This document shows positions 235 through 58,942 of a stretch of DNA of 64,000 nt, piece after piece. The stretch lies in assembly GCF_001677475.2 (NCBI RefSeq), contig NZ_CP015229.1; one strand, given 5' to 3'. How positions within the stretch are numbered: the first letter of the stretch is position 1; each line of letters starts with the position of its first letter. The notes below the pieces were generated by a model. It saw only the letters and a list, made by a program, of their open reading frames with translations, had not been told where the DNA came from and ran no database searches. A program made the translations under genes and the position numbers. The stretch comes from Escherichia coli (GTDB taxonomy: Bacteria > Pseudomonadota > Gammaproteobacteria > Enterobacterales > Enterobacteriaceae).

Positions 235-1865
<1,631 letters not shown>

Positions 1866-1874
1866 GGATAAGAT

Positions 1875-3047
1875 ATGTTCGATTTTTCAAAGGTCGTGGA
1901 TCGTCATGGCACATGGTGTACGCAGTGGGATTATGTCGCTGACCGTTTCGGCACTGCTGACCTGTTACCGTTCACGATTTCAGACATGGATTTTGCCACT
2001 GCCCCCTGCATTATCGAGGCGCTGAATCAGCGCCTGATACACGGCGTGTTTGGCTACAGCCGCTGGAAAAACGATGAGTTTCTCGCGGCTATTGCCCACT
2101 GGTTTTCCACCCAGCATTACACCGCCATTGATACGCAGTCGGTGGTGTATGGCCCTTCTGTTATCTACATGGTCTCGGAACTGATTCGTCAGTGGTCTGA
2201 AAAAGGTGAAGGCGTGGTGATCCACACACCCGCCTATGACGCATTTTACAAGGCCATTGAAGGTAACCAGCGCACAGTAATGCCCGTCGCTTTAGAGAAG
2301 CGGGCTGACGGCTGGTTTTGCGATATGGGCAAGCTGGAAGCCGTGTTGGCGAAACCAGAATGTAAAATTATGCTCCTGTGTAGCCCACAGAATCCTACCG
2401 GGAAAGTGTGGACGTGCGATGAACTGGAGATCATGGCTGACCTGTGCGAGCGTCATGGTGTGCGGGTTATTTCCGATGAAATCCATATGGATATGGTTTG
2501 GGGCGAGCAGCCGCATATTCCCTGGAGTAATGTGGCGCGCGGAGACTGGGCATTGCTAACGTCGGGATCGAAAAGTTTCAATATTCCCGCCCTGACCGGT
2601 GCTTACGGGATTATAGAAAATAGCAGCAGCCGTGATGCCTATTTATCGGCACTGAAAGGACGTGATGGCCTTTCTTCCCCTTCAGTACTGGCGTTAACTG
2701 CCCATATCGCCGCCTATCAGCAAGGCGCGCCGTGGCTGGATGCCTTACGCGTCTATCTGAAAGATAACCTGACGTATATCGCAGATAAAATGAACGCCGC
2801 GTTCCCTGAACTCAACTGGCAGATCCCGCAATCCACTTATCTAGCCTGGATTGATCTACGTCCGTTGAATATTGACGACAACGCGTTGCAAAATGCGCTT
2901 ATCGAGCAAGAAAAGGTCGCGATCATGCCGGGATATACCTACGGTGAAGAAGGTCGTGGTTTTGTCCGACTCAATGCCGGCTGCCCACGTTCGAAACTGG
3001 AAAAAGGTGTGGCTGGATTAATTAACGCCATCCGCGCTGTTCGTTAA
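1875..3047 (+). CDS. malY: PLP-dependent cystathionine beta-lyase / MalT-antagonist MalY
   Basis: 390-aa ORF immediately downstream of malX; aminotransferase class I/II fold. Confidence 0.9.
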   Translation: MFDFSKVVDRHGTWCTQWDYVADRFGTADLLPFTISDMDFATAPCIIEALNQRLIHGVFGYSRWKNDEFLAAIAHWFSTQHYTAIDTQSVVYGPSVIYMVSELIRQWSEKGEGVVIHTPAYDAFYKAIEGNQRTVMPVALEKRADGWFCDMGKLEAVLAKPECKIMLLCSPQNPTGKVWTCDELEIMADLCERHGVRVISDEIHMDMVWGEQPHIPWSNVARGDWALLTSGSKSFNIPALTGAYGIIENSSSRDAYLSALKGRDGLSSPSVLALTAHIAAYQQGAPWLDALRVYLKDNLTYIADKMNAAFPELNWQIPQSTYLAWIDLRPLNIDDNALQNALIEQEKVAIMPGYTYGEEGRGFVRLNAGCPRSKLEKGVAGLINAIRAVR

Positions 3048-3053
3048 CCCCAA

Positions 3054-3092
3054 TTGCGCAACGTAAAAAATCGTTGCGCAATCGTGGATTTT
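3054..3092 (+). terminator. Hairpin TTGCGCAACG-N8-CGTTGCGCAA followed by T-run; candidate malXY terminator
   Basis: 10-bp perfect inverted repeat seen directly after the malY stop. Confidence 0.4.
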
Positions 3093-3150
3093 TACCCTGC
3101 TTTGTTTTTATAATGGTGCGCACTTTTATATCCAGAAAAAGAGTGCGACC

Positions 3151-4152
3151 ATGATTGATACCACCCTGCCATTAACTGATATCCATCGCCACCTTGATGG
3201 CAACATTCGTCCCCAGACCATTCTTGAACTTGGCCGCCAGTATAATATCTCGCTTCCTGCACAATCCCTGGAAACACTGATTCCCCACGTTCAGGTCATT
3301 GCCAACGAACCCGATCTTGTGAGCTTTCTGACCAAACTTGACTGGGGCGTTAAAGTTCTCGCCTCTCTTGATGCCTGTCGCCGCGTGGCATTTGAAAACA
3401 TTGAAGATGCAGCCCGTCACGGCCTGCACTATGTCGAGCTGCGTTTTTCACCAGGCTACATGGCAATGGCACATCAGCTGCCTGTAGCGGGTGTTGTCGA
3501 AGCGGTGATCGATGGCGTACGTGAGGGTTGCCGCACCTTTGGTGTGCAGGCGAAGCTTATCGGCATTATGAGCCGGACCTTCGGTGAAGCCGCCTGTCAG
3601 CAAGAGCTGGAGGCCTTTTTAGCCCACCGTGACCAGATTACCGCACTTGATTTAGCCGGTGATGAACTTGGTTTCCCGGGAAGTCTGTTCCTTTCTCACT
3701 TCAACCGCGCGCGTGATGCGGGCTGGCATATTACCGTCCATGCAGGCGAAGCTGCCGGGCCGGAAAGCATCTGGCAGGCGATTCGTGAACTGGGGGCGGA
3801 ACGTATTGGACATGGCGTAAAAGCCATTGAAGATCGGGCGCTGATGGATTTTCTCGCCGAGCAGCAAATTGGTATTGAATCCTGTCTGACCTCCAATATT
3901 CAGACCAGCACCGTGGCAGAGCTGGCGGCACATCCGCTGAAAACGTTCCTTGAGCATGGCATTCGTGCCAGCATTAACACTGACGATCCCGGCGTACAGG
4001 GAGTGGATATCATTCACGAATATACCGTTGCCGCGCCGGCTGCTGGGTTATCCCGCGAGCAAATCCGCCAGGCGCAGATTAATGGTCTGGAAATGGCTTT
4101 CCTCAGCGCAGAGGAAAAACGCGCACTGCGAGAAAAAGTCGCTGCGAAGTAA
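3151..4152 (+). CDS. add: Adenosine deaminase
   Basis: 333-aa ORF; N-terminal HRHLDG metal-binding motif typical of adenosine deaminase. Confidence 0.93.
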
Positions 4153-12443: not shown

Positions 12444-13078
12444 TGAACAAAGCAAAACGCCTGGAGATCCTCACTCGCCTGCGTGAGAACAATCCTCATC
12501 CCACCACCGAGCTTAATTTCAGTTCGCCTTTTGAATTGCTGATTGCCGTACTGCTTTCCGCTCAGGCGACCGATGTCAGTGTTAATAAGGCGACGGCGAA
12601 ACTCTACCCGGTGGCTAATACACCTGCAGCGATGCTTGAACTGGGCGTCGAAGGGGTGAAAACCTATATCAAAACCATTGGGCTTTATAACAGCAAAGCA
12701 GAAAATATCATCAAAACCTGCCGTATCTTACTGGAACAGCATAATGGCGAGGTTCCGGAAGATCGTGCTGCGCTTGAAGCCCTGCCTGGTGTAGGTCGTA
12801 AAACAGCCAACGTCGTATTAAACACTGCATTCGGCTGGCCGACTATTGCTGTCGACACGCACATTTTCCGCGTTTGTAATCGTACTCAATTTGCGCCGGG
12901 GAAAAACGTCGAACAGGTAGAGGAAAAGCTACTGAAAGTGGTTCCGGCAGAGTTTAAAGTCGACTGCCACCATTGGTTGATCCTGCACGGGCGTTATACC
13001 TGTATTGCCCGCAAGCCTCGTTGTGGCTCTTGTATTATTGAAGATCTTTGTGAATACAAAGAGAAAGTTGACATCTGA
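12443..13078 (+). CDS. nth: Endonuclease III (DNA glycosylase/AP lyase)
   Basis: 211 aa; HhH-GPD motif and C-terminal 4Cys Fe-S cluster (CIARKPRCGSC); start overlaps rsxE stop. Confidence 0.93.
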   Translation: MNKAKRLEILTRLRENNPHPTTELNFSSPFELLIAVLLSAQATDVSVNKATAKLYPVANTPAAMLELGVEGVKTYIKTIGLYNSKAENIIKTCRILLEQHNGEVPEDRAALEALPGVGRKTANVVLNTAFGWPTIAVDTHIFRVCNRTQFAPGKNVEQVEEKLLKVVPAEFKVDCHHWLILHGRYTCIARKPRCGSCIIEDLCEYKEKVDI

Positions 13079-13688
13079 AGAAAAGGGGTAACACCGATTA
13101 CCCCATTGATAACCTTTCTTTATCCTCTTTTAAAACATCTTTTTAACGTCAATGATGCCATTGCTTAGCGTTATCATCAGGTAATCCGTTTGCGGATAAC
13201 CAAAAATGCAGGTTAATTGTTTTTTTAATAGCGAAATTTTCTATTCATTCGTGATCAAGATCACGATGCTGTGGCAATGTAAAAACATTGCAAGAACTAG
13301 GTTAAAATCATTTAAATTTACACACGCAACAAATATTGACCTACAAAACATTACACTGGCTATTTTTCAGAAACTGGACTATCTCACTAGGAAAAACGCT
13401 AAATAGCAGAATATATCGCCGTTAAGCCATCATCCCCCTCTCAGGGTAGTGAAAAAATCTGCCGTTACGTTTTTTGAAAAATTTAACGCTGGATAACATT
13501 TCCCGGAATGGTTGAATTCCCCGCCTCAGTTATATGTAACAGATTATTACAAAGGACTTGTCTGAAAGTGCAAGATAGTGAACATTACCTGCCGTTTCCC
13601 CTCCCACTATAACAATTGCGCGTATGTTTTTTAGGCATAACGCGAGAAAGCACCCCCGTTAATATGGGATGTAAAAAAAGAGGTAAAA

Positions 13689-15191
13689 GTGTCCACTGCA
13701 AACCAAAAACCAACTGAAAGCGTCAGTTTGAACGCTTTCAAACAACCGAAGGCGTTCTATCTCATCTTCTCGATTGAGTTATGGGAACGTTTTGGTTATT
13801 ACGGCCTACAAGGAATTATGGCTGTTTACCTGGTTAAACAACTGGGTATGTCTGAAGCGGATTCAATCACCCTTTTCTCTTCCTTTAGTGCCCTGGTTTA
13901 TGGTCTGGTCGCTATCGGCGGCTGGTTAGGTGACAAGGTACTGGGTACTAAACGCGTAATTATGCTTGGCGCTATTGTGCTGGCGATTGGTTATGCTCTG
14001 GTTGCCTGGTCTGGTCACGACGCCGGTATCGTTTATATGGGTATGGCGGCTATTGCGGTCGGTAACGGCCTGTTTAAAGCTAACCCGTCTTCTCTGCTTT
14101 CTACATGCTATGAGAAAAACGACCCGCGTCTGGACGGTGCATTCACCATGTACTACATGTCCGTCAACATCGGCTCTTTCTTCTCTATGATCGCCACCCC
14201 GTGGCTGGCCGCGAAATACGGCTGGAGTGTTGCGTTTGCGTTGAGCGTTGTAGGCCTGCTGATCACTATCGTTAACTTCGCCTTCTGCCAACGCTGGGTT
14301 AAACAGTACGGTTCAAAACCAGACTTCGAGCCTATCAACTACCGTAACCTGCTGCTGACCATTATTGGTGTTGTGGCACTGATCGCTATCGCCACCTGGC
14401 TGCTGCACAATCAGGAAGTTGCGCGTATGGCGCTGGGCGTTGTTGCCTTTGGTATCGTGGTTATCTTCGGTAAAGAAGCCTTCGCGATGAAAGGTGCTGC
14501 GCGTCGTAAAATGATCGTTGCCTTCATCCTGATGCTCGAAGCCATTATCTTCTTCGTGCTGTACAGCCAGATGCCAACGTCACTGAACTTCTTTGCGATT
14601 CGTAACGTTGAACACACCATTCTGGGCCTGGCCGTAGAACCTGAGCAGTATCAGGCACTGAATCCGTTCTGGATCATCATTGGTAGCCCGATTCTGGCCG
14701 CTATCTATAACAAGATGGGCGATACCCTGCCGATGCCAACTAAGTTTGCAATCGGTATGGTGATGTGTTCTGGTGCGTTCCTGATTCTGCCGCTGGGTGC
14801 GAAATTCGCGTCTGACGCAGGTATCGTGTCTGTAAGCTGGCTGGTCGCGAGCTATGGCCTGCAGAGTATCGGGGAACTGATGATCTCTGGTCTGGGTCTG
14901 GCAATGGTTGCACAACTCGTTCCGCAGCGTCTGATGGGCTTCATTATGGGTAGCTGGTTCCTGACCACTGCCGGTGCAAACCTGATTGGTGGTTATGTTG
15001 CGGGTATGATGGCTGTGCCGGATAACGTTACCGATCCGCTGATGTCACTGGAAGTCTATGGTCGCGTATTCTTGCAGATTGGTGTCGCTACTGCCGTTAT
15101 TGCAGTACTGATGCTGCTCACCGCGCCGAAACTGCACCGCATGACGCAGGATGACGCTGCAGACAAAGCGGCGAAAGCTGCTGTAGCGTAA
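13689..15191 (+). CDS. dtpA: Proton-dependent di/tripeptide permease (POT family)
   Basis: 500 aa; GTG start; POT/PTR2 signature; preceded by 610-bp AT-rich upstream region. Confidence 0.9.
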
Positions 15192-57941: not shown

Positions 57942-58142
57942 TTATTTCGCATCCTCTTCGCAAACACAGTGCTGACAATTCAGCAGCCTGATATTAAGCA
58001 TTCAACTAATACGCTGCTGACTCTGTCCCCAACACCAGATATTTTCCCTAACCCGATAGTGTATGAGAAAAGATTTAACGCTGATAAACTAATCCTTTAT
58101 GGTTAGGAGAAAAAATAATGTGATTATTCTGAGCTCTTAACA

Positions 58143-58156
58143 TTGATCGTTATCAA
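58143..58156. promoter_or_regulatory. FNR-type box TTGAT-N4-ATCAA upstream of ydhY
   Basis: Perfect match to the FNR/CRP-family half-site spacing in AT-rich region about 200 bp upstream of ydhY start. Confidence 0.5.
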
Positions 58157-58396
58157 TTAAAATCACAAAGCAAGAAATTATAAGTGAACTGATATTTATT
58201 ATCATTTGAAATAAATTTAACTTAAGCAACAATTATTTGTGACGTTCATTGCAGAAAATAAAAATAACATTATCGCTATAAATTAAAATACATACCGAAA
58301 TTCGTATAATTTCAGCAGTTGTTATTTAGAATGATTAACTGGACTGCAACTGAACTAAGAATATCAGGATGAAGCTTACCGCCTCATCCTGAATGG

Positions 58397-58606
58397 TCAT
58401 TTTACCAGTGCGTTAATGACGGTTTCCATCGCCTGCTTTTCCAGCTCACTGCGCTGAATGCGTTTATTGGCTAATGCTGTACGTAACACGCCTGCGATAA
58501 CAATATGCTTTGGTTCCTGCCCCAGATCGCGCATTTCCAGCACAACTTTACCGACAACTCTGCACATTTCTCGGTACAGTTCATCCTCTTTTGTCCGGTT
58601 TCCCAT
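58397..58606 (-). CDS. fumD: Small protein YdhZ (fumarase D)
   Basis: 69-aa ORF. Confidence 0.75.
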   Translation of the reverse strand: MGNRTKEDELYREMCRVVGKVVLEMRDLGQEPKHIVIAGVLRTALANKRIQRSELEKQAMETVINALVK

Positions 58607-58942
58607 TCTTTATACCTATTTATCATGCCAACTATCAGCATATATCAATCTAACCAATTAAACAAAAACCAAACAAAATCAGACAAATAACGCGATAAAT
58701 TATTTTCACTGTAGCAATTGAGCGATGATGTATTTTATACGCCGGATGAACTCTCACTTATCCTCACACTGACAACCCCGGCACCAGACGTTGCGCAAAC
58801 AACGAAGTTTTTGCGTAACCTTTTCCCTGTAACGTTAAATCTTTGATAACAATTTATTGTCTTACAAGTTGTATATTTTTTGAAACGCTGTTTTTGTTTT
58901 CCTTTTAGATTAATTTCAGCGTATAATGCGCGCCAATTGACT

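Follow-up and report, generated by a model that had tools for sequence, protein, structure and literature searches.

A dtpA control region with conserved islands at fixed spacing in the nth-dtpA intergenic interval of Escherichia coli

We analyzed a 610-bp intergenic interval (positions 13079-13688) in a 64,000-nucleotide stretch of the Escherichia coli chromosome (contig NZ_CP015229.1; the whole stretch is hereafter called the window). The interval lies between nth, the last gene of the rsxABCDGE-nth operon, which ends at 13078, and dtpA (also named tppB or ydgR), which starts with a GTG at 13689 and encodes a proton-coupled di-/tripeptide permease. We consider it very probable that the interval is made up of the rsx-nth terminator hairpin, an unconstrained spacer of ~100 bp and a ~480-bp dtpA control region and leader (13209-13688), and that it contains no independent genetic element. 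Both the locus and this type of region have been described before, and the region is an ordinary promoter region with an unusually rigid architecture.

Conservation and spacing of the nth-dtpA interval

We collected 80 dtpA loci from one-genome-per-species collections covering ~20 enterobacterial genera and used an alignment of 71 sequences for the identity values and column counts of the conservation analysis. The upstream neighbor of dtpA was nth in all 80 loci, and the gap between the two genes was 570-620 bp in almost all of them. It measured 735 bp in Intestinirhabdus and 1,060-1,185 bp in Kosakonia and Phytobacter, where it is longer because a UPF0093 gene sits after nth. The first 130 bp of the interval had a mean identity of 0.36 with 10% gaps and a length variation of ~50 bp, while the remaining 480 bp had a mean identity of 0.65 with 0.5% gaps and 38% of the columns at least 90% identical; the comparison identity, taken from the third-codon positions of nth, was 0.52. 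No insertion column was present between 13162 and 13597. An earlier sequence-only reading of this DNA had held that uniformly poor conservation would speak against a regulatory role of the interval, and with this proportion of near-identical columns the interval was clearly not uniformly poorly conserved.

The conservation was concentrated in ~11 islands with identities of 0.7-0.9, separated by spacers with identities of 0.2-0.4, and the array of islands extended upstream to ~-385 from the dtpA start site. When the distances were measured on unaligned sequences, those from island to island were fixed to 1-2 bp in ~60 species, and the distance from the first island to the -10 region (anchors A1 to A11) was 366-368 bp. 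The dtpA-gstA gap of these loci, taken as a control, ranged from 98 to 166 bp, and neighboring non-coding DNA varied by 50-70 bp. The whole 480-bp array was found intact beside dtpA in Kosakonia and Phytobacter despite the extra gene after nth, indicating that the array belongs to dtpA and not to nth. In Enterobacter the spacers between the islands were G+C-rich, and AT-richness itself is therefore not the conserved property. The segments and islands upstream of the core promoter were as follows; the factor names given to islands are proposed from their sequence.

13085-13104, plus strand: hairpin GGGGTAACACCGATTACCCC directly 3' of the nth stop, candidate terminator of rsxABCDGE-nth
13105-13208: weakly conserved, length-variable spacer with a mean identity of 0.36, in which 2% of the columns reach 90% identity
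13209-13226: island 1, CAGGTTAAT followed by a T7 run; left edge of the array, near-invariant
13229-13243: island 2, Lrp-like TAGCGAAATTTTCTA, matching YAGHAWATTWTDCTR at 13 of 15 positions by our own count; ~-357
13251-13264 (22-mer 13247-13268): CRP-type palindrome GTGATCAAGATCAC, centered at 13257.5, that is -335.5 from the dtpA start
13267-13292: island 3b, GATAAC-N5-TGTTAAATTTTTGTT in most genera, degenerate ATGCTGTGGCAATGTAAAAACATTGC in E. coli
13344-13390: islands 4 and 5, ...ACCAG-N2-ATTTTTCAGA-N2-ATGG-N-CTATATCACTG; mean identity 0.72-0.74
13401-13421: island 6, Lrp-like AAATAGCAGAA(C/T)ATATCGCC, with the match at ~13404; ~-182
13430-13450: published GadX footprint from chromatin immunoprecipitation with exonuclease digestion (ChIP-exo), scored as repressor, -151 (PMC4918353 supplement, 1710534-1710554 in U00096.2)
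13447-13461: island 7, Lrp-like CAGTGAAAAAATCTG; ~-139
13478-13501, plus strand: island 8, AAATTTAACGCTGGATAACATTT, with TTTAAC (13482) and AATAAC (13492) 10 bp apart; near-invariant
13529-13555, plus strand: island 9, putative promoter-proximal OmpR site GTTATATGTAACAGATTATTACAAAGG, with TGTAAC (13535) and TATTAC (13545) 10 bp apart; near-invariant

The dtpA promoter, its leader and the predicted regulator sites

A weight-matrix scan of all species identified exactly one promoter-like signal that was conserved across species (93%), with its -10 element starting at 13581. This core promoter matched the consensus at 7 out of 12 positions, as expected for an activator-dependent promoter, and for that reason it was missed by a strict promoter scan. 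The promoter and the leader downstream of it have the following parts.

13558-13586, plus strand: dtpA core promoter, -35 TTGTCT (13558-13563), 17-bp spacer, -10 AACATT (13581-13586)
13593-13688, plus strand: dtpA 5' untranslated region of ~96 nt, its start site taken from ChIP-exo offsets
13595-13618: C-rich/CA-rich 5' end of the leader
13620-13643: leader hairpin 1
13655-13668: leader hairpin 2, followed by an A-run
13681-13684, plus strand: Shine-Dalgarno sequence GAGG before the dtpA GTG

The start site at ~13591-13593 is implied by the offsets in two published ChIP-exo tables (OmpR and GadX). Strain MG1655 has a gap of the same length, 610 bp, at 1712159-1712768, with 10 substitutions and no indels relative to the window, so that published K-12 coordinates convert exactly. 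For U00096.2 the window position is the coordinate minus 1697104, which we checked with the nth end coordinate 1710182. The published OmpR ChIP-exo peak at 1710621-1710680 (U00096.2), which was scored as activating, corresponds to window positions 13517-13576 and is centered at -46.5. In long-term stationary-phase cultures, the earliest sweeps include mutations of the dtpA promoter. One of these, A to T at intergenic position +503/-108, has swept repeatedly and increases the dtpA mRNA level ~23-fold. This position is 13581 in the window, and the change turns the -10 element from AACATT to TACATT. The promoter map thus explains the recurrent A-to-T change as an improved -10 element.

Published work on a dtpA -201 to +15 fusion describes activity that was strongly reduced without OmpR and repressed by excess OmpR, and dtpA/tppB is among the few OmpR targets common to E. 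coli and Salmonella across studies. Island 8 lies inside this OmpR-dependent fusion and is probably, judging from its sequence, an upstream OmpR dimer site centered at ~-103. Both islands 8 and 9 carry tandem TxxAC half-sites 10 bp apart, the pattern of OmpR sites such as ompF F1 and ompC C1. With regard to other factors, YdcI was found to bind upstream of dtpA in a genome-wide binding study, and a database-derived table lists phosphorylated OmpR as an activator and leucine-bound Lrp and GadX as repressors of dtpA. The expectation from the sequence-only reading that the interval would be a dense platform for nucleoid proteins or response regulators was supported by the OmpR and GadX peaks, the YdcI binding, the listing of Lrp and the share of highly conserved columns.

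A match of at least 11 out of 15 positions to the Lrp consensus from systematic evolution of ligands by exponential enrichment (SELEX), YAGHAWATTWTDCTR, was kept at ~13229, 13404 and 13447 in 97%, 94% and 94% of the species, respectively. The median matches at these places were 13, 11 and 12 out of 15, and the background was 1.6% per position. On this pattern island 2 would be a Lrp site, as would islands 6 and 7. Expression of tppB in Salmonella was reportedly found to depend on leucine by Jamieson and Higgins in 1984. In Lrp multi-site complexes the sites are phased ~30-33 bp apart. The periodicity of the conservation profile was weak, with broad peaks at ~33.5 and 42 bp, of which only the 42-bp peak was nominally significant (p~0.02, uncorrected).

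The two hairpins of the leader are conserved. In hairpin 1, 5 out of 7 pairs change on both sides, while hairpin 2 is invariant, and the two-hairpin covariation score of 0.247 was higher than that of all 500 shuffles (mean 0.145). The tppB/dtpA mRNA is a verified target of the R1 region of the small RNA (sRNA) GcvB in Salmonella, and chimeras were recovered by RNA interaction by ligation and sequencing (RIL-seq) in E. coli. Prediction of the GcvB-leader duplex was uninformative, with an energy no better than that of shuffled leaders, and it did not resolve the exact pairing site. We also noted two short upstream reading frames in the leader: a minimal start-stop ATG-TAA at 13669-13674 in the invariant stretch ATATGGGATGTAAAAAAAGAGG, 15 nt upstream of the GTG, and an ATG at 13664 that opens a 17-codon out-of-frame open reading frame (ORF) overlapping the dtpA start.

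The distal part of the array (13209-13390) contains the CRP-type palindrome. The match to GTGATCAAGATCAC was unique within the window and lay at a fixed 41 bp from island 1. Both half-sites were intact in 50 out of 71 sequences. The two bases at the center, by contrast, varied freely, and fixed half-sites with a free center are the signature of a real CRP-type site. G/C at the bases that separate CRP sites from FNR sites places the palindrome here with the CRP type. Next to it, island 3b repeats, in inverted orientation, the AAATTTAAC element of island 8 (a reverse-complement match at 9 out of 10 positions, 13278-13287 against 13479-13488), and presumably resembles OmpR or ArcA direct repeats. 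Islands 4 and 5 lie 16 bp apart and 111-112 bp from the CRP-type site, both distances being fixed, and are outside the OmpR-controlled -201 to +15 fusion; ATTTTTCAGA...CTATATCACT and island 1 are the distal islands to which we assigned no factor. Readings of the palindrome or of island 4 as matS, a SlmA site, an FNR site or a sigma-54 promoter were rejected by eye on spacing or discriminating bases.

Taken as a whole, the array is read as follows. A weak sigma-70 promoter with its start at ~13593 depends on phosphorylated OmpR, which would occupy the tandem half-sites centered at ~-46 and probably also those at ~-103. GadX (~-151), leucine-bound Lrp (putative sites at ~-182, -139 and -357) and YdcI modulate this promoter, and the 96-nt two-hairpin leader is targeted by GcvB. 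The fixed spacing combined with near-random spacers suggests helical-phase dependence between neighboring sites, and phase dependence in turn suggests joint action of the distal and proximal modules. The sites would then act jointly in a helical-phase-sensitive complex, in which small indels would rotate sites out of register and be selected against.

Weighing of the explanations

Several observations weigh against this reading in its full extent. The OmpR and Lrp island assignments rest on degenerate consensus matches, and the E. coli interval overall had 14 Lrp matches of at least 11 out of 15 against 9.8 expected, which is not significant alone. From -335.5, CRP could not reach RNA polymerase at the known dtpA promoter in any of the standard arrangements (class I, II or III). 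CRP is absent from the dtpA regulators in the database-derived table, and the supplement of a CRP ChIP-exo paper has no dtpA/ydgR entry, the contents of its second supplementary file not being established. A full-text literature search gave no report of CRP acting at dtpA, and no binding data were found in the literature for the distal 180 bp (13209-13390). The distal module also appears not to be needed for OmpR control, since the -201 to +15 fusion already shows both activation and repression. We infer CRP involvement at dtpA from the palindrome. A stronger version of the proposal, which we regard as possible though on balance doubtful, would make the 480 bp one phase-locked 'enhanceosome' of OmpR, Lrp, GadX, YdcI, a distal CRP and at least two further, as yet unnamed factors at islands 1 and 4/5, with even 1-bp indels rejected throughout the sampled history of the Enterobacteriaceae, or else would make the distal half an unannotated CRP-controlled promoter or transcript.

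That the distal module (13209-13390) forms a transcription unit of its own seems unlikely to us. It could be a CRP-dependent second promoter with -10 TAAAAT at 13303-13308, a start at ~13315-13319 and CRP at ~-58 to -61, producing either a short RNA or a dtpA mRNA with a long leader, or it could be a divergent minus-strand RNA ending at the hairpin 13104-13085, then TTTTCTTC on that strand. Such a unit would give the high-quality CRP-type site, which is without a known target promoter, a promoter to act on; Escherichia, Citrobacter and Salmonella all have TAAAAT, TAAATT, TAAAGT or TACATT at this place, and several promoter-like hexamer pairs are present in the E. coli interval. A multi-species scan, however, found no -10 element or full promoter within ~100 bp of the CRP-type site, on either strand, that was conserved beyond the Escherichia-Citrobacter-Salmonella clade, and no second conserved promoter for an sRNA. 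An RNA fold shared across species was not found for the distal module (consensus energy -0.45 kcal/mol), and the annotations of MG1655 and of a sample of 60 further RefSeq E. coli genomes show neither an RNA gene nor any other feature in the gap. The terminator scan scored the 13085-13104 hairpin as terminator-like on the minus strand alone, where the T-run TTTTCTTCAG sits, which fits a minus-strand RNA; on the other hand, a hairpin follows nth in nearly all species and its T-run is usually on the plus strand, hence it is probably the nth terminator, and a minus-strand RNA would have to cover 13105-13208, the least conserved part of the interval. A specific minus-strand version, an sRNA with a class II CRP promoter, a start at ~13218 and its terminator at 13104-13085, was dropped on these same grounds and for want of a conserved -10 element at the proposed site. 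In favor of a separate unit, a sigma-70 ChIP-exo table (PMC5957442) has a narrow peak filed under the nth end, its distance from the gap being unclear. The filing under the nth end is explained by supplement S1 of that paper, where units on the plus strand have their right-hand end entered as 'transcription start site' (for example purR 1736893, osmY 4610024, rsxABCDGE-nth 1710182).

The sequence-only reading had also allowed for a hidden small RNA or small ORF in the interval, and neither found support. An Rfam scan of 12500-14300 with E-values up to 10 gave noise only (snoRNA and Bacteroides sRNA models far below thresholds), and the only predicted intrinsic terminator inside the interval was the post-nth hairpin, other predictions lying in nth (13009-13026) and dtpA (13741-13714). 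The ORF at 13206-13406 (66 aa, ATG start), whose two ends lie within conserved islands, had been described as lacking a ribosome-binding site and as the only six-frame ORF in the interval. The former held, with no Shine-Dalgarno sequence upstream (GGATAACCAAAAATG); the latter was correct at a 60-aa cut-off, while at 30 aa or more 13241-13351 (minus strand) and 13508-13612 (plus strand) are found as well. A hidden small protein gene, whether this ORF or a shorter one, is in our view scarcely tenable. The start codon of the 66-aa ORF was present in only 6 of the 71 sequences and the frame was intact in one; elsewhere in Escherichia the frame is broken by a stop at codon 15 or 38, and the ORF had no Pfam match. 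A 3-nt periodicity of conservation was absent (0.56/0.54/0.60 in the interval compared with 0.94/0.97/0.53 in nth), and no long open stretch was conserved across species in any frame. The sole small ORF kept in more than 80% of the species has 12 codons (13547-13585, minus strand) and is an artefact, since it lies antisense across the conserved -35 and -10 elements.

Could the interval simply be H-NS-silenced or unconstrained AT-rich 'safe harbor' DNA in which only the proximal promoter has a specific function? We consider this very improbable for the interval as a whole. The G+C content is 37%, the nth-ydgR intergenic locus serves as a landing pad on the chromosome for libraries in massively parallel promoter-reporter work, insertions there being tolerated in the laboratory, and one natural isolate carries an IS66-family insertion sequence at ~13291. 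Nevertheless, the gap is present at 95% identity or more in 5,422 of 5,426 complete E. coli genomes and is thus core genome, and that isolate is the only one of the 5,426 in which it is interrupted. The cross-genus identity of the 480 bp, their invariant spacing and the G+C-rich Enterobacter spacers are likewise at odds with such a reading. It is refuted for 13209-13688 and is still the best description of 13105-13208.

The nth flank, related promoters and significance

The 13085-13104 hairpin is likely the terminator of the rsxABCDGE-nth operon. Its plus-strand tail in the window strain is ATTGATAACC, which has no U-run, and a U-rich plus-strand stretch comes only after a second, weak hairpin at 13108-13124. 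A G+C-rich hairpin of unrelated sequence was found within ~60 nt after the nth stop in nearly all of the ~80 species, many with a plus-strand T-run, and we assign the hairpin to nth since it follows this gene across species. Because the hairpin sequences are unrelated between species, it appears to be kept as a structure and not as a sequence. In Escherichia and Citrobacter a small second hairpin, (C)ATAAC-N5-7-GTTAT(C/G) at 13106-13125, follows the terminator, at ~45-62 nt from the nth stop in the Citrobacter loci. Its stem sequence is conserved and its loop varies; it may belong to the terminator or serve as a binding site. The distance from the nth stop to the first island ranged from ~93 to 141 bp across species, and all the large alignment insertions fell within the 13105-13208 spacer. 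The extra gene of Kosakonia and Phytobacter encodes a 141-143-aa membrane protein (Pfam UPF0093/DUF2269) and lies convergent with nth, before the dtpA array (minus strand, 1335-1760 in locus L047 and 1436-1867 in locus L083). A strong CRP-like palindrome, TGTGATATTACTCACA, lies between the UPF0093 gene and the dtpA array in locus L057. The idea that the first 130 bp are a remnant of a lost UPF0093 gene was rejected, as E. coli has no similarity to the Kosakonia/Phytobacter gene.

As to the composition of the interval, two features named in the sequence-only reading were borne out. It is the longest gene-free interval in the window, the next annotated gap being fumD-ydhY with 455 bp, and it is AT-rich with homopolymer runs (G+C 0.37 against 0.508 for the window, within the lowest 0.8% of 610-bp windows; 13 runs of 5-7 nt), though the window minimum of 0.346 is found in the lpp-pykF region (~58081-58690). 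The window shares 99.7% identity with strain 2016C-3878 and 98.5% with K-12. In strain 2016C-3878 the locus tag RS10170 is missing between nth (BEN53_RS10175) and dtpA (BEN53_RS10165), which suggests that the annotation pipeline first called a gene in the gap and then withdrew it. The insertion in the single interrupted genome, strain GZ2408C, is ISCro1 (tnpA, tnpB and a transposase gene; 855-3470 of locus L086), and it separates the CRP-type site from the remaining array.

The region belongs to a locus with a published history. The dtpA promoter work of Goh, Siino and Igo (2004), the later OmpR, GadX and YdcI ChIP-exo studies and the GcvB work all concern the same locus, and their start site, GadX site and up-mutation map consistently onto our coordinates. 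The accessible published work on dtpA covers at most -201 to +15, and the array from -201 to -385 lies beyond it. This array, the CRP-type site and the invariant spacing are modest additions, of which we found no mention in the accessible literature, Goh et al. (2004) excepted.

One of the closest known systems is ompF. In ompF, OmpR sites F1-F3 lie at the promoter and a distal site, F4, at ~-360 to -380 is thought to repress by looping. Like ompF, dtpA is a core member of the OmpR regulon with promoter-proximal tandem half-sites, and it has an OmpR-site-like element far upstream (~-305 to -315) in most genera. Unlike in ompF, the distal element of dtpA is inverted and is degenerate in E. coli, the OmpR ChIP-exo data show a single proximal peak, and repression by excess OmpR is seen already in the -201 to +15 fusion. 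In the published account, low levels of OmpR activate dtpA and high levels repress it, which its authors call 'reminiscent of ompF', while the osmolarity response of dtpA differs from that of ompF. With CRP-dependent promoters, the distal palindrome of dtpA shares a GTGA-N6-TCAC core with flanking TC/GA; however, CRP-dependent promoters have a 22-bp site with TGTGA-N6-TCACA cores centered at -41.5, -61.5, -72.5, -82.5 or ~-93, whereas the dtpA palindrome is centered at -335.5, with no conserved core promoter at those distances.

The genes csgD, gadE and flhDC have several hundred bp of AT-rich upstream DNA with sites for response regulators, global regulators and nucleoid proteins, and long structured leaders targeted by sRNAs. 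They share this large multi-factor layout with dtpA, for which we measured spacing fixed to the base pair over ~370 bp and ~20 genera. Because the spacing is invariant over this length and the spacers are near-random in sequence, the region offers a clean natural case in which promoter geometry, and not sequence, is under selection. The distal CRP-type site, absent from the database-derived list of dtpA regulators, is a testable candidate. Moreover, four-fifths of the landing-pad locus is conserved regulatory DNA, so that the point of insertion matters for dtpA and conceivably for the reporters.

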